This document shows, one piece after another, positions 296 through 37,552 of a stretch of 48,321 nucleotides of DNA. A program made the position numbers and the translations under genes. The notes below the pieces were generated by a model. It was not told where the DNA came from. It did no database searches and saw nothing but the letters and a program-made list of their open reading frames with translations. The stretch spans positions 380,878 to 429,198 of IMG/VR virus record IMGVR_UViG_3300025030_000039; one strand, given 5' to 3'. This stretch comes from a virus. How positions within the stretch are numbered: the first letter of the stretch is position 1; the number at the start of each line of letters is the position of its first letter.

Positions 296-306
296 TTTAT
301 AATTTG

Positions 307-377
307 CAGATCTACAAAGATTCGAACTCTGAAAGACGGGTCTGGAATCCGTCGTGTTACCATTACACTATAGACCT
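307..377 (-). tRNA. tRNA-Trp (anticodon CCA)
   Basis: rc: acceptor AGGTCTA/TAGATCT, D-stem GTGT/ACAC, anticodon stem ACGGA/CCCGT (A31-C39 mismatch) with loop TTCCAGA, T-arm CAGAG-TTCGAAT-CTTTG, discriminator G; 71 nt, folded by hand. Confidence 0.5.
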
Positions 378-388
378 ATTTAAATTCG

Positions 389-464
389 TGGGAACTGAGA
401 GATTTGAACTCCCGGCCTTAATTTTGTAAGAATTCTGCTCTAAACCAAACTGAGCTAAGCTCCC
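389..464 (-). tRNA. tRNA-Val (anticodon TAC)
   Basis: rc: acceptor GGGAGCT/AGTTCCC, D-stem GCTC/GAGC, anticodon stem GAATT/AATTA (G27-A43 mismatch) with loop CTTACAA, variable AGGCC, T-arm GGGAG-TTCAAAT-CTCTC, discriminator A; 76 nt. Confidence 0.55.
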
Positions 465-483
465 ATTTACACCTAAACTTTTG

Positions 484-567
484 TACTACGTATGGGATTC
501 GAACCCATGAGTTGTTTCCAACACAACAGTGAAAGTGTTGCGACCTAAACCTCTAGTCGAACGTAGC
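484..567 (-). tRNA. tRNA-Glu (anticodon TTC) with unusually long (15-nt) variable region
   Basis: rc: acceptor GCTACGT/ACGTAGT, D-stem GACT/GGTC, perfect anticodon stem CAACA/TGTTG with loop CTTTCAC, T-arm ATGGG-TTCGAAT-CCCAT; 15 nt (TGTTGGAAACAACTC, hairpin GTTG-GAAA-CAAC) between anticodon stem and T-stem. Confidence 0.5.
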
Positions 568-589
568 ATTTAAATTTGGGTGGAAGATG

Positions 590-673
590 GGTACCTGATA
601 GGATTCGAACCTACGATGTTTCTAATGTATAGAGCCACAATCTATTGCCTTCGGCCGCTAGGCTACAGATACC
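590..673 (-). tRNA. tRNA-His (anticodon GTG) with encoded G-1 and a long (14-nt) variable region
   Basis: rc: extra 5' G (G-1) opposite discriminator C73, acceptor GTATCTG/CAGGTAC (one G-U), D-stem GCCT/AGGC, perfect anticodon stem ATAGA/TCTAT with loop TTGTGGC, T-arm GTAGG-TTCGAAT-CCTAT; 14 nt (ACATTAGAAACATC) in variable position. Confidence 0.55.
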
Positions 674-5195: not shown

Positions 5196-6029
5196 TTAAT
5201 CTAATTTTTCTCCACATGTTGGACAAAATTTCCATGTCGATTTTTTAATTCTTGATCTACATTCTGGACAATATTGTCTATTATCAGTTGGAAAAATAAC
5301 AGTTTTTTGAGATTCAGGAAGAATCTTATATTCAACAAATGATGAACAATAAGAATTAAATTCAATATCTATTTGATCAAAATATTGACTTGAAGTTTTA
5401 CCTTTAGATATTCTACCAGTTTCTTTTGTCGCAGACATTTTAGAACATTTAACTGATCTTTTATTTTCATTTAAAAATCCTTTAGTTTGTTCTTGATTAG
5501 AATTTACATTAATATTGATATCTAAGCTATCTGTTGTAGTAGAATATTGTCCACTAGTATTTGTAACTCCTGTTGAATAAAAACATGTATTAATATTTTG
5601 AGTTCCATTTGTATACGTACCAGGAAACCAATAATCTTTGTCAAAAGATAATGTTAAATTTTGATTTTTAACTTTTTCATCATAAAATTCTATACGTAAA
5701 ATACCATTTTTTGCAATAGCATGATTAGTTGATTGATTATTTTCAACTTCATACGTTTCAAAAAGAAATTTACGATTCTGATCTAAATATCTATCTAACC
5801 AAACTCGTTCACCTGGTTTTAAAACAAGTAAATTCTTTGACATAGAATTACCATTAAAGATAATTTTAATACCGATAGTATTTTGTTTTGGATTATAGAG
5901 TTCTAATTCAAACTCATCTTTGTCTCTTAAAAAGACATTATTATCGTTTGCCTGGGAACGATAAACCCTTTGTCTGTTTTTGCCTATGGCCACGTGAGCC
6001 TCTGGCGTTCCATAAAATAATTGTACCAT
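5196..6029 (-). CDS. hypothetical protein with C-terminal zinc ribbon (CPEC...CPTC)
   Basis: C-terminal CxxC-x14-CxxC; S/T/N-rich linker; N-terminal 30 codons noticeably GC-richer than surroundings. Confidence 0.45.
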   Translation of the reverse strand: MVQLFYGTPEAHVAIGKNRQRVYRSQANDNNVFLRDKDEFELELYNPKQNTIGIKIIFNGNSMSKNLLVLKPGERVWLDRYLDQNRKFLFETYEVENNQSTNHAIAKNGILRIEFYDEKVKNQNLTLSFDKDYWFPGTYTNGTQNINTCFYSTGVTNTSGQYSTTTDSLDININVNSNQEQTKGFLNENKRSVKCSKMSATKETGRISKGKTSSQYFDQIDIEFNSYCSSFVEYKILPESQKTVIFPTDNRQYCPECRSRIKKSTWKFCPTCGEKLD

Positions 6030-30792: not shown

Positions 30793-32032
30793 TTATATTA
30801 TCTACCGATTTTGATTCAACTTTATTTTTTTTAGACTTTAAAGTTTTAATACTTTTTGTAACATCATGCACTTTATGTAATTCAATTTGAATTGGTGTAA
30901 CTTTATATTTTTCTTTATTGTCTCGTAATATATTAACCAATTCTTTAGAATATTCTTTATCATTAAAATTAACTGCTTTAAACTGTTCTTCTATTATTTG
31001 TTTTCTCATAGAAGGATTACTCTTTATAGCTTTTATTCTTTTTTCTACATCTTCTCTATTAGATACATAATTAAATTTTTGGCAAATATCTGAATGACCA
31101 AATACACGTTTAGTAGGATCTAATTCAATATCAATTAAAGTTATAACAGAAGCCCATATACTTTGATAACATCTCTGAGGCATATCTCTTCCTTCATACC
31201 ACTCATCGCCTATAACAACATGAGTATATGTATCATTAGATTTTTCCATATAATCTTTAGCATCAACTGACTTTCCATAAATAGGAGGTCTGGGATTACC
31301 ATTTTTAGAAGCAATATTTAATAAATCTTCTGAATTTATTTTTCCAAACATTTCAACATTTATACTATCAGAATATCCAAAATAATATTTAACCATTTTT
31401 TTAATTCTTCTATTACCTCGCATTGTCCCTCCATATATTAAATCATAATTTGGTTTATCATTCATGGATAACGGATTATCAAGACATGGAAATTTTTCGA
31501 ATGGAAAATGAATAACATCTGCTACTTGTATTTCTGTTTTAGAAATAACTTCTCTAACATCATCTAATTTATATGGCTGTGAAATATATATTATATCATT
31601 TCGTGTTATTTCAATATCTTCTTGTTTATAATTAGAACTCCATTCTTTTCCTTTAATTGATCCCCAAGTTTGTCTTAATACTAATGCTGGATCACAATAA
31701 ATATAATAAATTTGACCGACAAATTTATTAATAATGAAATAATTTAAAATTTGATCCCTAGATTCAGCACCACCAAAATAATTTATGGTTCCGTTCAATA
31801 TAATTAATGCATCATATTTTCTATCATTAATTTTATCAAAATTATCTTCAATATTATAAAAATTAAATGTATTTGGATTATTATCTTTTGCTAAAATTTT
31901 TGTATAAATATCTATTTTTGCCCCACCTCTATGTAGAGTTTCAATTATATATCTAGCCTCATAATTTCCACCAGATGTATCTCTAGCATCCCATGCTATC
32001 CTAGAACCTATTTTAATTACTGCTATTTTCAT
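30776..32032 (-). CDS. bgt-like: DNA beta-glucosyltransferase homolog (T4 BGT-like, GT63-type)
   Basis: recalled T4 BGT blocks align along the length: MKIAVIKIG/MKIAIINMG, DALIILNGTINYFGG/DRLIVVNSSINFFGG, QIYYIYCD/KIYYLFTD, YDLIYGGTMRGNRRIKKMV/LDVIYGGSFRSGQRESKMV, VVIGDEWYEG...IWASVITLIDIELD/LIIGDKNYND...TMASDAVMLIDEEFD. Confidence 0.6.
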   Translation of the reverse strand: MKIAVIKIGSRIAWDARDTSGGNYEARYIIETLHRGGAKIDIYTKILAKDNNPNTFNFYNIEDNFDKINDRKYDALIILNGTINYFGGAESRDQILNYFIINKFVGQIYYIYCDPALVLRQTWGSIKGKEWSSNYKQEDIEITRNDIIYISQPYKLDDVREVISKTEIQVADVIHFPFEKFPCLDNPLSMNDKPNYDLIYGGTMRGNRRIKKMVKYYFGYSDSINVEMFGKINSEDLLNIASKNGNPRPPIYGKSVDAKDYMEKSNDTYTHVVIGDEWYEGRDMPQRCYQSIWASVITLIDIELDPTKRVFGHSDICQKFNYVSNREDVEKRIKAIKSNPSMRKQIIEEQFKAVNFNDKEYSKELVNILRDNKEKYKVTPIQIELHKVHDVTKSIKTLKSKKNKVESKSVDNIIEDLF

Positions 32033-32318
32033 ATCTCATTACTTGTTCAAGTCTACCAAATATTAAATCTACAAATTTATGTGTTGTAGTATCTCTATCA
32101 TATATTATTTTTGCACCTAATAAATTCATATCGATAATTTGTGGTACATTATTAGTTTCATCACAAATAACATCAATATTTTCGTGATTAATTAAAAATA
32201 TTCCCTTTAAAATTAAAGCAAATCCTTCTCTAAATTCAGCAGTATTAAAATAATGAGGATTATTCATTAATTCAGAGTTAACTTTACTATAAATATTTGA
32301 CACTAATTCTTTTTTCAT
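32013..32318 (-). CDS. hypothetical protein (101 aa)
   Basis: ORF only. Confidence 0.35.
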   Translation of the reverse strand: MKKELVSNIYSKVNSELMNNPHYFNTAEFREGFALILKGIFLINHENIDVICDETNNVPQIIDMNLLGAKIIYDRDTTTHKFVDLIFGRLEQVMRYENSSN

Positions 32319-32375
32319 TATATTCTTATTTTATTATTCAGACCTATCTCAAACTATATTAAATTTAAGATCTAA

Positions 32376-32591
32376 TTATTTGTTAAGTTGGAAGATTCTT
32401 GATAGATATTCTTTACTTAAAGTTTCAGCATCTTTTAGTTTACTAAACATTTCTTCTCTGACATCTTTCAAAGTCCTATCATTTGTTTCAAAACGCGATT
32501 GTAGGAAAGTATGAAAATTTATTTTATCTTCATCAGATAATTTATCGTATATTTTTTTAATTGCTTCTAAATATGTTAATTTATTTTGCAA
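32376..32591 (-). CDS. hypothetical small protein, paralogous to 32576..32800
   Basis: shared pattern xNKLxxxxxxxKxLSxxDKIxFxxFxxxxxE with neighbour. Confidence 0.35.
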   Translation of the reverse strand: MQNKLTYLEAIKKIYDKLSDEDKINFHTFLQSRFETNDRTLKDVREEMFSKLKDAETLSKEYLSRIFQLNK

Positions 32592-32800
32592 ATTTGTTTT
32601 GTTAAAAATTCAACATTAAAATAAGGTTCTTCTTTATCATTTTTTAATTTTAATAAATCATTAATAATATCTAATCTTTCATTAATTAATTCTAGATTTT
32701 CAACTTCTTGACTTCGTTTAATAAAAAAACCAAATTTTATTTTATCTCTATGACTTAATGATTTATATAAATCTTTTATGTCTTCTAATTTATTTTCCAT
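32576..32800 (-). CDS. hypothetical small protein, paralog of 32376..32591
   Basis: tandem duplicated small ORF; AGGAGG-like sequence 7 nt upstream of ATG. Confidence 0.35.
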   Translation of the reverse strand: MENKLEDIKDLYKSLSHRDKIKFGFFIKRSQEVENLELINERLDIINDLLKLKNDKEEPYFNVEFLTKQICKIN

Positions 32801-32951
32801 TTTTATCCTCCGTATTTTGTAATTTTTGTTTTAATTCTATTAAAATTTTATATTGATCGTCTGACCAAATTTGAACTTTCTTTTTATTAAAACCTTCATT
32901 TTCATCATTTCTATTTCGATCATTATTAGATCTTTCTTTAGTATTTTCCAT
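32790..32951 (-). CDS. possible small ORF (53 aa, N/D/E/K-rich) below ORF-track cutoff
   Basis: ATG at 32951; stop overlaps start of 32576..32800; low-complexity so may be spurious. Confidence 0.2.
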   Translation of the reverse strand: MENTKERSNNDRNRNDENEGFNKKKVQIWSDDQYKILIELKQKLQNTEDKNGK

Positions 32952-33455
32952 TTAAAAAATTTTGTTTTGTTTTATTTTATTATTGTTTTTATTATCTAAA
33001 TATATTATATCTATATCAAAAGGTGATACATAATATTTATTTATTTTATAATCAGCATATTTAACTTTGTTTATTTGATAATATATTTTAATATTTGAAT
33101 TATTTTCTAATGTATACCAAATATATTTAACAGATTTATTATTTAATCTGAATTCTTGTCTTTCTTTTATTTTTAAATGATTTTTATCGAATTCAATATA
33201 TGGTCCATGATCACCTATAACTATTCTATTATATCCTATTACAAAAACTTCTTTGTTAAAAATTAATAAATTATTTTCAGAAATATTTTGAAATTTATAA
33301 TATTTATCTAAATATTTTTTATAAATATTTCTTATTATTTGACTATCAATATTATCTAAACAATTATAATTTCCTCTATTAATATTTTCCCAATAAAAAT
33401 TCCAAACTTCTAATTCTTTATTATCTTTAATTTCTTTTAATATAAAATTATACAT
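32952..33455 (-). CDS. hypothetical protein (167 aa)
   Basis: ORF; 8-nt overlap with hydroxymethylase gene. Confidence 0.4.
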   Translation of the reverse strand: MYNFILKEIKDNKELEVWNFYWENINRGNYNCLDNIDSQIIRNIYKKYLDKYYKFQNISENNLLIFNKEVFVIGYNRIVIGDHGPYIEFDKNHLKIKERQEFRLNNKSVKYIWYTLENNSNIKIYYQINKVKYADYKINKYYVSPFDIDIIYLDNKNNNKIKQNKIF

Positions 33456-34329
33456 TACTTTTTATATTTGTATAAATCCAATTAAATAATTTATCTTCAC
33501 TTATAAATAATTTATCTTCTAATATACATGAAGTTAAATATTTAAATACAGAACTCATTTTACCTTTATTATCTATTATATTTAAATCTATTAATGGTAA
33601 TTCTAAAGGTACAAAAGGATGCGCTAACATTTCATTAATGAGTTCAAAATTTCGTTGATATATGTGAAGTGAATTATCTATATGTGTATATTTTCCAAGT
33701 TGTAAATCATGATATTTATCTTCCTTAAGAAGTTTAAACATTTGTTGATGTAATAAAGTAAAAAACGCTATATCAGTTGGTAAACCTAATATAGCATCGT
33801 TTGACCGCATTTCAACAGTAAAATCTAATTTATTATCTCTAATATGAAATATACCTGTTAGTGTACATACAAAATCTTTATTACCTTCAAATTGATGATC
33901 TGGTGTATTAAAATGCATTATAGCTTGTCTTGTATCTTTATCAGATATTAATGAATCATAAGCCCATTCCCATTGATTTTTATTATGTTCATTTACTCTA
34001 TTAAATAATAAATATCCATAAGCACTATTAACAGTTAATCCATCAGGATTAACTATTTGATTCCAAAATTTTGCGTATTTTGATATAAATTCTATAGTAT
34101 TATAACCATTAAAATACCATATTAATTCCGCGGAAATATATTGTAATTGACTGCCTCTTCTTTCATTTTTATATAATGCTGACAATGGATTTGTTATTTC
34201 AATAGATACATTAATATCTTCATTTACATTTTGACCTCTTGGAGATGTAATATATTGAGGATTATAATACAAATCAACTAATATTTTTTTATATGCTAAA
34301 GCAAATGTCTGTTCAGTATAAGTTTTCAT
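33448..34329 (-). CDS. thymidylate-synthase-superfamily dNMP hydroxymethylase, cytosine-type (T4 gp42 dCMP hydroxymethylase-like)
   Basis: DFVCTLTGIFHIR (catalytic Cys block, cf. gp42 DFMCTNTVQYLIR) and VEMRSNDAILGLPTDIAFF (cf. gp42 MRSNDVVFGFRNDYAW; Asp at the position that is Asn in thymidylate synthase PFNIASY). Confidence 0.6.
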   Translation of the reverse strand: MKTYTEQTFALAYKKILVDLYYNPQYITSPRGQNVNEDINVSIEITNPLSALYKNERRGSQLQYISAELIWYFNGYNTIEFISKYAKFWNQIVNPDGLTVNSAYGYLLFNRVNEHNKNQWEWAYDSLISDKDTRQAIMHFNTPDHQFEGNKDFVCTLTGIFHIRDNKLDFTVEMRSNDAILGLPTDIAFFTLLHQQMFKLLKEDKYHDLQLGKYTHIDNSLHIYQRNFELINEMLAHPFVPLELPLIDLNIIDNKGKMSSVFKYLTSCILEDKLFISEDKLFNWIYTNIKSNV

Positions 34330-34965
34330 TACTGATTAGCTTTTAATATTATATTTTTTATTTGATTATTAATTTCTTCAGGTGTATGATTAGAAACATT
34401 TATAAGATATTTATGATAAATTTTACTTTTATTAAAAGCTTCTTCAAATGCTTCTTTTTCTATTTTAACTTCTTCTACATTTTTATAAAATGATAAACCA
34501 TCATCTCTTTTAAGAATTGTTTCTGGATCATTTACAAATACAAACATAAATAAATTATCTTTTAATTCATTTACATATTGTTTTTCTATATCTAAAATAT
34601 AATCACCAGAATATTTTCTATATAAAGGAGCATATACCAATTCTCCTAAATGACTCCTATCAAAAATATAATTATAAGAATTATTAGAAAACAAATCTGA
34701 TGACATTTTATTATTTATACTTTCTATCATCATTGTAAACATTTGATTGTATAAAGTAGTAGAATAATTTATATGTTCTTCGTCTTTATTGAAAGGTAAT
34801 CCACTATAATGAAATGTTTGAAATACATTTCCTTTTCCTAAAATATCAGAAGCTTGTATAAGTTTTATTTGAGTTCCTTTACCTGTATTGTACTCAGTCT
34901 GGCCCTTCCATAATAATATGCAATGGAAGGGCCAGATTTTTAATTTTATTTTTTATTTTGTTCAT
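34329..34965 (-). CDS. thymidylate/nucleoside-monophosphate-kinase-like gene interrupted by a frame change (N-terminal 23 codons in one frame ending at TGA 34894-34896; remainder in +1 frame)
   Basis: frame A: MNKIKNKIKNLALPLHIIMEGPD* (hhhEGxD as in TMK IVIEGLDG); frame +1 continues TEYNTGKGTQIKLI...IFDRSHLGELVY (GKGTQ and DRS lid-like motifs) through the annotated ORF 34329..34742. Confidence 0.4.
34901..34932 (-). promoter_or_regulatory. GC-rich perfect 11-bp inverted repeat (ggcccttccat/atggaagggcc, 10-nt loop) immediately 5' (mRNA sense) of the frame-breaking TGA; candidate recoding/bypass or terminator-like structure
   Basis: direct reading; perfect complementarity; on the plus strand followed by a T-rich run (agatttttaattttattttttattttg). 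Confidence 0.45.
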
Positions 34966-34991
34966 ATTTTAAATATTTTTCTTGTGTTATT

Positions 34992-35609
34992 TTATCGAAT
35001 ATTATTAATTTCTGCTTTATTATCAATAAAGGATTCTATAGTACCCTTATTTTTTTCTTCTTTAACGTTTTCTTCTACTAAAATTAAGTCTCTATAATTA
35101 GGATATCTTTTAATTAAAATTTCTAACATTTTAATATCATTATGTTCTCTTATTTCTTCTGATTTTAATTTTTTTATTTTTTCTTCTTCAATATGAGCTA
35201 ACTCAACCTCTTTTCTAAGAAGTTCTATAACTTTCCAATCTTTATGTGTTTTAATTAAAACATCTGCATTTTCATGATTATGAATTAATTCAATATTAAA
35301 ATAAAGTTCTTTAATATTAGAATTTAAAGTATTATAACTTGATTGTAATGGTAAAAATTGTGATAAATATTTATTAATATCTATATCAGCATATAAATCT
35401 ATATTTAATTCATTAATTACATTATATTTAATAATATAAAAAGAATATTCATAATAAGCTAATTTATTTTGGTTTTCTATTTCAGTTAATAAAATATTAA
35501 TAATTTCTTCAACATTTGAACCTTTTATTACAATTTCATTATCATAAAATTTAGTATATCCTTTTAATTGAAATTCACTCTTGTAATTTAATGCTAATTT
35601 ATTTTCCAT
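34992..35609 (-). CDS. hypothetical protein (205 aa)
   Basis: ORF only. Confidence 0.4.
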   Translation of the reverse strand: MENKLALNYKSEFQLKGYTKFYDNEIVIKGSNVEEIINILLTEIENQNKLAYYEYSFYIIKYNVINELNIDLYADIDINKYLSQFLPLQSSYNTLNSNIKELYFNIELIHNHENADVLIKTHKDWKVIELLRKEVELAHIEEEKIKKLKSEEIREHNDIKMLEILIKRYPNYRDLILVEENVKEEKNKGTIESFIDNKAEINNIR

Positions 35610-35656
35610 AATTTTTATTAATTTTATTATATTATATGCACAATATTATATTTTGT

Positions 35657-35950
35657 TTAAATTTTATTAAATAATTTTTCAATTATTAATTCCGTTTCTT
35701 TTATATCGTCTTCAGTAGGTATAGGAACAATATTAACTTCAAAGATTGGACCTTTTTCTACTTTTCCATTATCTATTATTTTGCCCATCGCTCTTAATGA
35801 TATATTTAAAGTTTGTCCAAATTTTTCCTTTATTTCATTAAACAATGAGTTGTTAGTAATTTTAAAATTTATTAGTGTATTATTACTTTCATCAAATTCA
35901 GTCCAGCCGACAATCTGTTCTATATATTTAACAGGTACTAATCCGTTCAT
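35657..35950 (-). CDS. hypothetical protein (97 aa)
   Basis: ORF only. Confidence 0.35.
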   Translation of the reverse strand: MNGLVPVKYIEQIVGWTEFDESNNTLINFKITNNSLFNEIKEKFGQTLNISLRAMGKIIDNGKVEKGPIFEVNIVPIPTEDDIKETELIIEKLFNKI

Positions 35951-35951
35951 C

Positions 35952-36698
35952 TTATTTTATATTATTGAAATAATTATTAATTTCATTTAATTCACTTTCA
36001 GTATTAAAACTTTTTGTTAAAAATTTATCATCTAATATTAATAAATGAGCAGGTTCATTTATATTCCATAAATAATGAACAATATCTAAAAATATTAATT
36101 CTTTATTTATATACTTTCCATTTTTATCTAAAACATTATGAGCAGTTAATAAATGATTATAAAAATTATTATTTATCACAAATATAGATTGATCGTGATA
36201 TCCATCCGAAATTTTATCACCTCTTTTACTAAACATTGCTTGTTCTGCTTTATTGTCTGAAAATTTAAACCATACATACGGATTTTTTTCATATATTACA
36301 GGTATAGTAAGACTAGTAGTAGTTTTAATATTTGATATATTTTCAAACAATTCTTTATTTGAAAAATAAGTATCTCCCCAACAAATAGAAATATTATCAT
36401 ATACATTAGTATCTATAAATCCTAATGTTTCTAATATTGCATGCCCACAACCTCTTCCTGATTTAATAGGTATTAAATGTATTTTATCATCTAAATCTAT
36501 ATAATTATGTATAACTTCTTTATAAAGATCAAAATTTGTATGATTAGAGGCAATTATAATTTGATCATAAAATTCATAAGCATTTTCTATAGTATGCAAT
36601 AAATTTGGTTTACCGTTTATTAAAGATATCGCTTTAGGCAAATATCCCATTCTTGAACTGTCACCAGCCGCTATTATAAGTAATACTTTTTTATTCAT
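35952..36698 (-). CDS. IspD/TarI-family sugar(alditol)-phosphate cytidylyltransferase-like protein
   Basis: LLIIAAGDSSRMGYLPKAISLINGKPNLLH matches the AAGxGxRMG..PKQ...L.G.P glycine-rich loop of IspD/TarI/MobA-like NTP transferases. Confidence 0.5.
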   Translation of the reverse strand: MNKKVLLIIAAGDSSRMGYLPKAISLINGKPNLLHTIENAYEFYDQIIIASNHTNFDLYKEVIHNYIDLDDKIHLIPIKSGRGCGHAILETLGFIDTNVYDNISICWGDTYFSNKELFENISNIKTTTSLTIPVIYEKNPYVWFKFSDNKAEQAMFSKRGDKISDGYHDQSIFVINNNFYNHLLTAHNVLDKNGKYINKELIFLDIVHYLWNINEPAHLLILDDKFLTKSFNTESELNEINNYFNNIK

Positions 36699-37095
36699 TA
36701 GTAATGAGATCGAATGTAAATATTTTTTTAAAAATTATTTCTTGTTCATTTTGTGTGCCTGTAGATCTAATTCCAACTCTTAAATCATCTAAAATTTCTT
36801 TTGCTATATTACCTTTAGGTGTTTTTAATATTTCTAAATTAACATAAATTTCATTATCATTTTCATAATAAATGTCTGTTATAAGATGAGATACATTAGC
36901 TAAAGAAATTTCAAATTCAGTAGGATTATATAATTCTCCTAATAATGTTTTATTTTTAATTTTTTCTTTTAAGTGTTCTATATTTTGTTTTAGACTTTCC
37001 TTATTAACATTTACCCATCTAGGTTCTGTTAAATCTAATGCTAATGCTTTATAAGCAATAGGAATTAATTTATATTTTTCTTTATTCATTTTCAA
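36691..37095 (-). CDS. hypothetical protein (134 aa)
   Basis: ORF only. Confidence 0.35.
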   Translation of the reverse strand: MKMNKEKYKLIPIAYKALALDLTEPRWVNVNKESLKQNIEHLKEKIKNKTLLGELYNPTEFEISLANVSHLITDIYYENDNEIYVNLEILKTPKGNIAKEILDDLRVGIRSTGTQNEQEIIFKKIFTFDLITNE

Positions 37096-37552
37096 TAATT
37101 AAATTTGTAAAATATCTTTTTTTAATTTCAAAAAAATTATTTTTAGAATTTGAATATTTTTTTACAGTATCTTTATCACAATATCCAGCAAATATAATAT
37201 TTATTTCATTATGTGATATATTTTCAATTTGCATTAATGCAATATAATCAAATGTTAATTTTTTAAAATAAACATTATCGTGATATGTAGCTCTATTTGT
37301 TTTAACATCTATTTTAAATCCAGCATGTATAAAATCATATCCACCATCACCTTTAACATTATTAGTATAATTTATTTCTGATACTTTATCTTCAAATAAT
37401 TTTTTATACGCTAATTCACCTAATTTGCCTATAATAATATCTTTCTTAACTTTTCGTTTTTCTCTATATTGAGCATTATGATTATTGAAAGATTTATTTG
37501 CAAATTCAAATAAATCTTTCAATTCATTTCGTTTTATTTGTATTTTTATCAT
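37082..37552 (-). CDS. hypothetical protein (156 aa)
   Basis: ORF only. Confidence 0.35.
   Translation of the reverse strand: MIKIQIKRNELKDLFEFANKSFNNHNAQYREKRKVKKDIIIGKLGELAYKKLFEDKVSEINYTNNVKGDGGYDFIHAGFKIDVKTNRATYHDNVYFKKLTFDYIALMQIENISHNEINIIFAGYCDKDTVKKYSNSKNNFFEIKKRYFTNLIIENE

Follow-up and report, generated by a model that had tools for sequence, protein, structure and literature searches.

A probable programmed short-range bypass site, marked by a 5′ hairpin and an in-frame stop, in thymidylate-kinase-like genes of phages

Natural programmed bypassing is known from very few systems, namely gene 60 of phage T4 and its homologs, the mitochondria of Magnusiomyces and a candidate in the Streptomyces phage phiHau3. 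In T4 gene 60, pairing of the mRNA that leaves the ribosome has been proposed to drive the bypass forward (10.1101/2024.12.09.627546), and according to a survey of gene 60 homologs published in 2022, similar bypassing had not been reported for other phages (10.1101/2022.08.31.505936). In the terminase of phiHau3, gaps of 7-10 nt are bypassed, with a 5′ stem-loop proposed as the signal; the junction peptide was detected in E. coli, and three such terminase genes are known (PMC10732093). The gene described here codes for a thymidylate-kinase-like protein and lies in a stretch of 48,321 nt of virus DNA (positions 380,878 to 429,198 of the IMG/VR record IMGVR_UViG_3300025030_000039; hereafter the window). 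The window is part of LR756500.1, an unannotated genome of 462,018 bp from an uncultured ‘huge phage’, and starts at genome position 118,150. The kinase gene is broken at its P-loop by an in-frame stop, directly behind a GC-rich hairpin, and the same arrangement is found in ten related genes.

The gene is on the minus strand and consists of two open reading frames, ORF1 and ORF2 (Table 1). The segment HIIMEGPD of ORF1 aligns with the family consensus hhhEGxD and is followed by the stop UGA. The +1 frame after this stop reads ...EYNTGKGTQIKL... (..EYNTGKGTQ..) and carries the DRSH motif through to the stop at 34331-34329; the coordinates, ORF1, the TGA and the +1 frame with TGKGTQ and the DRS motif running to 34329 all hold as given in the original prediction, which was made from the letters of the window. 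More than 150 homologs of about 190 residues were found in metagenomes, and ORF1 plus ORF2 align end to end with them. The P-loop consensus of these homologs is hhhEGxD-[N/R/C]xGKxTQ, with zero length variation among 58-60 intact genes; the closest relatives have FEGPDNTGKGTQIKL and FEGPDNIGKGTQIKL at this position. The window yields the corresponding IIMEGPD-NTGKGTQIKL only when the seven nucleotides UGAGUAC are skipped, while a +1 shift would put Glu-Tyr into the Walker A loop. The proposal that a 7-nt skip, and not a +1 shift, gives a canonical Walker A is borne out by the homolog consensus (hhhEGxDNxGKxTQ) and its constant length.

As the best reading of these sequences, the two frames would be joined into one 209-residue thymidylate-kinase-like deoxynucleoside monophosphate (dNMP) kinase by a hop of peptidyl-tRNA-Asp over the gap. 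We consider it likely that the site is a selected recoding site which gives the full-length kinase by such a hop, that is, by programmed short-range bypassing or ‘stop-hopping’. The anatomy is seen over 11 loci, and a single reading restores the invariant P-loop in all three frames. One hop mechanism is favoured because the alternatives need +1 frameshifting, -1/+2 frameshifting and readthrough, each of which adds 1-3 residues to Walker A.

The hairpin directly upstream of the stop is a perfect GC-rich palindrome, as originally described, although its stem comprises 14 bp and not the 11 bp given there. The last two stem pairs use the G and the A of the GAC codon that precedes the stop, which places the 3′ end of the stem at +1 of this codon, the proposed take-off codon. 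The GC content is 22.8% in the window and 24.3% in the LR756500.1 genome, and the hairpin, which had been called striking in DNA of about 22% GC, is by far the most GC-rich one in the window; about 1e-6 perfect 14-bp stems with at least eight G-C pairs are expected per window of such composition. Its minimum free energy (MFE) is -26.7 kcal/mol (z = -4.8 relative to dinucleotide shuffles). The hairpin is the second of only 11 comparable hairpins in the whole 462-kb genome, none of which is tied to another frame break; the hairpin at 5335-5375 is non-coding. The arm sequence is unique within the window, and a search of Rfam gave no real match. In the intact relative L002, the homologous I-L-P-L-P stretch is encoded without complementarity.

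Conservation of the hairpin and the stop in homologs had been set beforehand as a test, and ten other genes with hairpin, GAC, stop and short gap were found. They were located by fetching the contigs of ‘short’ homologs that start at an internal Met and by scanning with degenerate DNA patterns. The pattern scans gave only L055/L072 among six hits in IMG/VR, three true hits out of 37 in JGI metagenomes and no true hit among 37 in GTDB genomes. Three short homologs were set aside, L066 and L162 as truncations at contig edges and L160 as a truly deleted copy. The junction reads GAC UGA GUAC AAU in the window (+7), GAC UGA GUGAU AAU in L063/L064 (two independent assemblies with an identical junction; +8), GAC UAA GAA AAU in L065 (a contig of a metagenome-assembled genome; +6, in frame) and GAC UAA AGGC AAC in L055, which is the same as L072 (a 91-kb IMG/VR contig; +7). 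It reads GAC UGA GAC AAU in L098 (JGI metagenome; +6, in frame), GAC U GAC AAY in L097, L067, L069, L106 and L161 (JGI and Logan; +4) and GAC U GAC AGG in L068 (Logan; +4).

The main elements are the same at all 11 loci. ORF1 has 18-28 codons and ends in ...hhhEGxD with GAC as the Asp codon, a stop follows directly (UGA in nine loci, UAA in two), and the P-loop resumes as [N/R]xGKxT after the gap. Six loci need a shift of +4, two of +6 (in frame), two of +7 and one of +8, so that all three frames are represented. Eight of the 11 loci have GAC or GAU directly before the resume codon; in the other three, the triplet at this place differs by one mismatch (UAC in the window, GAA in L065 and GGC in L055). 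L097 and L098 (GAC U GAC AAU and GAC UGA GAC AAU) are close relatives with different frames and the same predicted product; in L067, the hop product would read EGTDNVGK. The broken loci stem from different studies, samples and assemblers and occupy at least six separate places in the family tree, several of them beside intact sisters. In L055 (L055:1450-2064), the ORF2 frame is opened by an ATG that lies within the 5′ hairpin arm, so that gene callers give a protein of normal length, 204 residues, with a false N-terminus (MGPFRASSLSSRDLTKG...), and the recoding site is hidden.

Hairpin and break occur together. When the 70 nt up to and including the Asp codon are folded, every one of the 11 broken genes gives an MFE between -20 and -30 kcal/mol, whereas the same region of 60 intact loci gives -0.8 to -12.5 kcal/mol and perfect stems of at most 4 bp. 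The association has a Fisher p of about 4e-13 over loci and of about 1e-4 when six broken and ten intact lineages are counted. Counted from the G of GAC, the end of the stem falls between -2 and +1 in every broken locus. For analysis of covariation, the loop-trimmed arms were aligned by codon position: 82.7% of the stem cells are paired, as against at most 57% in a slid register, and five of the 11 stem pairs show double-sided changes (14 cells). The covariation score is reached by none of 500 shuffles. The arm sequences differ between lineages and covary. Codon choice differs likewise between broken and intact genes. The Asp codon is GAC in 11/11 broken genes and in 3/58 intact ones, the other 55/58 having GAT; the Gly codon GGT occurs in 0/10 broken and 50/58 intact genes, and the Glu codon is GAG in 7/10 and 12/58, respectively.

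The broken genes evolve under purifying selection. Pairs of broken genes have a ratio of nonsynonymous to synonymous substitution (dN/dS) of 0.12-0.22 at dS 0.6-1.2, similar to the 0.07-0.11 of intact pairs, and no further stops or frameshifts are present in the 11 broken loci. These data bear on the suggestion, made in the original prediction as an alternative, that the gene is a fresh pseudogene, and on a related one in which the kinase is split into the 23-residue peptide and a separately initiated ORF2. Gene callers do output only a truncated product of 133 residues (P0001) for the window gene, as either possibility would have it. However, the same lesion is found at the same codon in at least six lineages with covarying stems, and no secondary lesions have accumulated at dS ~1. 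In eight of the 11 loci, none of the start codons ATG, GTG and TTG precedes the P-loop in ORF2, and the remaining starts would give a product without strand β1; in the window, ORF2 lacks a start codon of its own before Met50, and initiation at this first Met would delete the whole P-loop. A truly decayed copy also looks different: L160 (L160:1-170) has lost about 45 internal codons and lacks the hairpin. Purifying selection, covarying stems and recurrence therefore refute the pseudogene, and we regard pseudogene and split gene together as highly improbable.

A different explanation, which we consider unlikely, is conventional recoding without a hop: a prfB-type +1 shift at GAC-UGA in the genes with 4- and 7-nt gaps, a -1/+2 shift in the gene with the 8-nt gap, and readthrough in the two in-frame genes, leaving 1-3 extra residues in the P-loop. 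The layout in the marine clade is indeed prfB-like, with the Shine-Dalgarno (SD)-like GAGGGG, a 3-nt spacer, a sense codon and UGA-C; +1 shifting at a stop is known to be stimulated by upstream hairpins (PMC6321510), and in the window the frame is regained by +1, +4 and +7 alike. However, three mechanisms would be needed for one conserved architecture, and the resulting Walker A would vary in length (G-x5-7-GK), in contrast with its invariance in 58 intact homologs. Moreover, GAC moved by one nucleotide becomes ACU, with no re-pairing in the +1 frame. The presence of GAC/GAU exactly before the resume codon in 8/11 loci would be left unexplained, and L097 and L098 are close relatives in different frames. 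The original prediction had named a programmed frameshift or a bypass; bypass is supported by the covarying stems, purifying selection and recurrence, whereas the occurrence of gaps in all three frames speaks against simple +1 frameshifting.

It may also be asked whether the hairpin acts in translation at all. It could be a nucleic-acid element unrelated to decoding, such as a terminator for antisense transcription of the plus strand or an endonuclease-linked site or immunity scar, with the kinase tolerated, inactive or dispensable. On the plus strand the stem is followed by TTTTTAATTTTATTTTTT, a T-run; an endonuclease-like ORF lies directly upstream in L067 and L069; and the difference between the marine clade and its intact sisters is cassette-like, with ORF1 better conserved than ORF2. 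Such an element does not explain why a stop directly follows GAC, why the landing triplets are cognate, why the same P-loop is restored in three frames or why both ORF1 and ORF2 are under purifying selection. As to a terminator, the neighbouring genes are all on the minus strand, with no plus-strand genes nearby, and the A-rich 5′ flank is ordinary coding sequence in AT-rich genomes and is not present in L063, L097 and L098. The antisense terminator suggested in the original prediction is not required, though it may exist. A role in DNA immunity would be compatible with bypass, as in T4 gene 60, and is not an alternative to it. We therefore hold an element of this kind, acting instead of recoding, to be very unlikely.

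The gap might, finally, be removed from the mRNA by hairpin-guided cleavage and religation or by editing, or be an artefact of sequencing or assembly beside a palindrome. Strong hairpins can cause sequencing artefacts, and enzymes of RNA-repair type occur in some of these phages as faint, weak matches in L068. However, the junctions are identical across independent assemblies and samples, the 11 loci come from different studies, and the gaps are structured (stop plus cognate triplet), unlike artefacts; conserved cleavage motifs are not seen. We know of no machinery that excises 4-8 nt, and this explanation is barely credible to us. For the window itself, the assembly indel that the original prediction had proposed to check for is not the cause, since the junction is identical throughout in an independent Logan assembly of run SRR1658462.

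A number of further candidates were tried and rejected. Assembly error is ruled out by identical independent assemblies of the window and of L063/L064. An alternative code or suppressor tRNA does not apply, as both UGA and UAA are used, frame 0 stops again four codons on, and the suppressor-like tRNA of the phage reads UAG only. A tRNA-Asp with an expanded anticodon was dismissed, the anticodon loop of the phage tRNA-Asp being normal (7 nt), and so was independent initiation of ORF2, with no upstream start codon in 8/11 loci and a product lacking strand β1 otherwise. The GC-rich arm is not a repeated or mobile element in the window or genome, its sequence being unique. Template switching at a quasi-palindrome was rejected by inspection as the source of the 7 nt, since the added nucleotides do not complement the flank on the other side. 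A GeneTack frameshift cluster named ‘thymidylate kinase’ (PMC3711429) reflects translational coupling of adjacent genes and is unrelated.

The proposed hop would proceed as follows. The ribosome would translate ORF1, unwinding the GC-rich hairpin on the way, and pause with UGA in its A site while peptidyl-tRNA-Asp is paired to GAC in the P site. By then the 5′ arm and the loop would already be outside the ribosome, while the 3′ arm (-12 to +1) would lie in the E site and the mRNA exit channel, so that each nucleotide of forward sliding would let one more G-C pair form. The hairpin would re-zip behind the ribosome, pulling on the mRNA and competing for the G and A of the take-off codon, until the codon-anticodon pairing breaks; in the window, L063 and L065, full closure of the stem requires these two nucleotides. 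The mRNA would then slide by a few nucleotides and the retained tRNA-Asp re-pair with a triplet that is cognate (GAC/GAU in most relatives) or near-cognate (UAC at +7 in the window), after which decoding would restart at the Asn codon to give ...IIMEGPD-NTGKGTQ.... We infer the ribosomal hop, the hairpin as its driver (from the geometry) and the exact landing triplet. The predicted junction peptides for the window are NLALPLHIIMEGPDNTGK for the +7 hop, NLALPLHIIMEGPDYNTGK for a +4 hop onto GAG and NLALPLHIIMEGPDEYNTGK for a +1 frameshift; L098 would give EGPDNTGK by a hop and EGPD-X-DNTGK by readthrough.

Several points weigh against the hop as just described. The 11 genes are known here from sequence alone. 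The landing triplet in the window, UAC, is only near-cognate, its first position being mismatched. In the window, a +1 shift, a +4 landing on GAG and a +7 landing on UAC share one frame and would all give a full-length protein, the +4 and +1 shifts adding one and two residues, respectively; +7 is favoured only because the length of the P-loop is conserved and because of how the relatives behave. The 3′ arm lies inside the ribosome while GAC is in the P site, so that the driving role of the hairpin would be one assigned by analogy. In SD-like content, the 3′ arm exceeds intact genes only slightly, or marginally. There is no stem-loop 3′ of the take-off codon, downstream folding being the same in broken and intact genes, and no recognisable nascent-peptide signal beyond the native β1 strand. 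A separate observation concerns the 8-nt gap of L063 (L063:2335-2350), which reads GAC-U-GAG-U-GAU, that is, as tandem ‘U GAN’ units; two +4 hops in succession, in place of a single one of +8, could cross it.

The predicted hop product has the Walker A GPDNTGKGT and the DRSH motif. It matches nearly the whole Pfam profile Thymidylate_kin (PF02223), with a score of 23.3 bits that is below the cut-off of 27, and a PHROG thymidylate kinase at 1e-12. An AlphaFold model of the 209-residue product has a predicted local distance difference test (pLDDT) of 87.4 and a predicted template modelling score (pTM) of 0.86, with pLDDT of 90-93 across the junction. In this model, residues 16-20 of ORF1 form strand β1 (pLDDT ~90), and the P-loop leads into helix α1, which comes from ORF2. 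The top PDB matches of the model are thymidylate kinases, together with the SP-beta prophage protein YorR (by sequence, YorR is matched only at E ~0.007). As modelled, the hop product is a thymidylate-kinase-like kinase with the fold of the P-loop nucleoside monophosphate kinases.

Comparison with the described systems shows the closest likeness to phiHau3. In the large terminase of this phage (and of a prophage), as in the kinase, a short non-coding block lies at a highly conserved protein junction. In both, a slow-to-decode codon is in the A site at take-off, and bypass is inferred since a frameshift would lengthen the protein at a junction that does not vary. The two also have in common a 5′ stem-loop, proposed as a stimulator along with a flanking SD-like sequence and placed otherwise than in gene 60; in the kinase, the SD-like signal is only marginally enriched. 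The kinase differs in having a stop, UGA or UAA, as the A-site codon in place of the rare sense codon UUA, in a gap of 4-8 nt as against 7-10 nt, and in a hairpin that abuts or overlaps the take-off codon and covaries over 11 loci in at least six lineages. The kinase case is known from the genes only, and it has no apparent regulatory logic comparable to the bldA tRNA. In function, the kinase device is probably one of programmed translational bypassing, nearest to the short bypass of phiHau3 and with far broader comparative support.

A likeness to T4 gene 60 had been pointed out in the original prediction and is partial. Gene 60 with its MobA-linked homologs and the kinase each have two ORFs for one protein and a stop directly after the take-off codon (10.1101/2022.08.31.505936; 10.1101/2024.12.09.627546). 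In both, with the kinase as proposed, the peptidyl-tRNA would be retained and re-pair at a matched codon (cognate in eight of the 11 kinase loci), with mRNA pairing behind the ribosome as the proposed driver. However, the gap is 4-8 nt and not 50 nt, the tRNA is Asp and not Gly, and take-off is at codon 18-28; the kinase has no A-site stem-loop holding the stop and no forward barrier, and its single strong hairpin is wholly 5′ of the stop. Nor does the kinase belong to the gene 60 cassette family, as there is no sequence homology, the host gene is a kinase and not a topoisomerase, and the adjacent ORF is unrelated to mobA. Gene 60 is linked to a homing endonuclease; in the kinase, an endonuclease-like ORF is adjacent in two of the 11 loci, and the marine clade is cassette-like.

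Features of three other systems recur in the kinase. Unprogrammed ‘stop-hopping’ in E. coli (Weiss et al. 1987; O'Connor et al. 1989) is reported as a frame-independent hop of peptidyl-tRNA over a stop codon, which ends a few nucleotides further on at the same codon or a similar one; it took place at low level, in synthetic contexts and without stimulatory signals. L098 (GAC UGA GAC) has exactly this pattern, whereas the kinase site is naturally conserved, lies in a needed part of the enzyme and is coupled to a selected hairpin. On 70S ribosomes without RF2, a GC-rich 12-bp hairpin beside the E site stimulates forward shifting at CUU-UGA (PMC6321510). The +1 frameshift of the RF2 gene (prfB) and the kinase share a stop in the A site and a duplex directly 5′ of the P/E sites, the 3′ arm of the kinase carrying the SD-like GAGG or AAGG. 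Unlike prfB, the kinase offers no re-pairing of GAC in +1, requires shifts of +4 to +8 equivalent to three frames (0, +1 and +2) and has no apparent autoregulatory logic. The ‘byp’ elements of Magnusiomyces capitatus mitochondria are described as GC-rich inserts of 27-55 nt in AT-rich coding sequence which are bypassed and have spread like small mobile elements; there the hairpin lies inside the bypassed insert, whereas that of the kinase is in translated sequence upstream of the gap. In full-text literature searches, neither bypass in a kinase nor the hairpin-GAC-stop-gap architecture was found to have been described.

The kinase family would add to these systems a minimal device, in which a sense codon, a stop and a short gap lie behind a 5′ hairpin. 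The 11 loci, with four gap lengths, three frames, cognate and near-cognate landings and covarying stems, form a natural mutant series, which makes it directly testable whether pairing of the exiting mRNA is enough to drive the sliding forward. Phage annotation misses such sites, as gene callers truncate the genes or, in L055, give a false N-terminus.

The origin of the arrangement can be followed in the marine clade. The broken L106 and the intact L044 have 90% amino acid identity, and the flanks are about 85% identical to those of the intact sisters, from which L106 differs by five changes within about 85 nt: a 38-nt insertion that brings a new ATG and the 5′ arm of the hairpin, replacement of the old ATG by ACT, GGT ACA to GGG ACC, GAT to GAC, and a 4-nt insertion. 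The intact P-loop-coding DNA of L044 is GAGGGTACAGATAACACAGGCAAAGAT. Conservation between L106 and L067/L069 is 0.84-0.87 in ORF1 and 0.73-0.76 in ORF2; for L097 and L098 the values are 0.81 and 0.65. In the AT-rich clade (the window and L063), the N-terminal extension is already present in the intact sisters L002 and L004, and the hairpin arm seems to have arisen in situ.

Directly upstream of the broken kinase in L067 and L069 (L067:370-1281 and L069:370-1281) is a 303-residue endonuclease-like ORF, identified by a match to a PHROG endonuclease (4e-10), weak matches to Phage_endo_I and NUMOD3, NUMOD3-like repeats and a PD...EVK motif. This ORF may be a homing endonuclease linked to the hairpin-stop-gap cassette; it is missing at the same position in L106, L055, L097 and L098. 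The arrangement recalls mobA and gene 60, an analogy that is only suggestive. In the window, two ORFs of 205 and 97 residues lie upstream of the kinase, next to the NTP-transferase gene, and are missing from the intact sister L002; neither has a family match, hence no homing-endonuclease link is shown for the window. We tentatively raise, while leaning towards doubt, the idea that hairpin, stop and gap form a small mobile ‘bypass cassette’. It would have been spread among phage dNMP-kinase genes by a free-standing homing endonuclease, altering the cut site of the latter (immunity) while the hairpin-programmed hop keeps the kinase made. If this were true, a solution like that of T4 mobA/gene 60 would have evolved independently a second time, here by a minimal mechanism in which a 5′ hairpin alone, in natural variants, suffices for crossing 4-8 nt in any frame.

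Table 1. Positions of the recoding site, the hairpin and the neighbouring genes in the window.
Feature	Position	Strand	Description
ORF1	34897..34965	-	ATG at 34965; 23 codons, MNKIKNKIKNLALPLHIIMEGPD; supplies strand β1 and the first half of the P-loop (EGPD)
Proposed take-off codon GAC	34897..34899	-	Asp23
In-frame stop UGA	34894..34896	-	slow-to-decode A-site codon, directly 3′ of the take-off GAC
Coding gap UGAGUAC, 7 nt	34890..34896	-	absent from the predicted protein; from comparison with homolog P-loops
Proposed landing triplet UAC (+7)	34890..34892	-	near-cognate for tRNA-Asp, 2/3 positions match; putative assignment
Alternative landing triplet GAG (+4)	34893-34895	-	same frame as +7; would add one Tyr
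ORF2	34329..34889	-	NTGKGTQ..., 186 codons; resume codon AAU 34889-34887; stop 34331-34329
Perfect 14-bp stem, TCTGGCCCTTCCAT / ATGGAAGGGCCAGA	34898-34911 and 34923-34936	+	11-nt loop
Hairpin 5′ arm in mRNA, UCUGGCCCUUCCAU	34923..34936	-	encodes L-A-L-P-L of the N-terminal extension
Hairpin loop, 11 nt, UGCAUAUUAUU	34912..34922	-	inverted-repeat and folding analysis
Hairpin 3′ arm, AUGGAAGGGCCAGA	34898..34911	-	encodes M-E-G-P plus G and A of the Asp codon
NTP_transf_3 gene	35952-36698	-	kinase neighbour
Two ORFs (205 and 97 residues)	34992-35950	-	between NTP-transferase gene and kinase
Thymidylate-synthase-like gene	33448-34329	-	its ATG overlaps the ORF2 stop (TAATG)
T4-type glucosyltransferase gene		-	downstream

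The neighbours of the kinase in the window are listed in Table 1, and the loci of relatives also have CofD-like, nucleoside deoxyribosyltransferase and MazG genes. The region at about 32000-36700 on the minus strand looks like a gene cluster of DNA-hypermodification type, in which the affected enzyme sits; from this context, the enzyme is therefore probably a dNMP kinase acting on a modified nucleotide.

A few observations elsewhere in the phage may be added. Other long perfect inverted repeats are present in the window at 37484-37523 (17 bp, AT-rich) and at 702-731 (13 bp, beside a tRNA cluster), and in the genome at 109651-109710 (23 bp) and 194157-194214 (25 bp). The tRNA cluster in the window (Trp, Val, Glu and His, 306-672, minus strand) is part of a total of 26 tRNA genes in the phage (cluster region LR756500.1 61-119 kb), which include a tRNA-Asp(GUC). 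A suppressor-like tRNA(CUA) at genome c[110652,110720] hints that TAG is reassigned in part of the phage genome.

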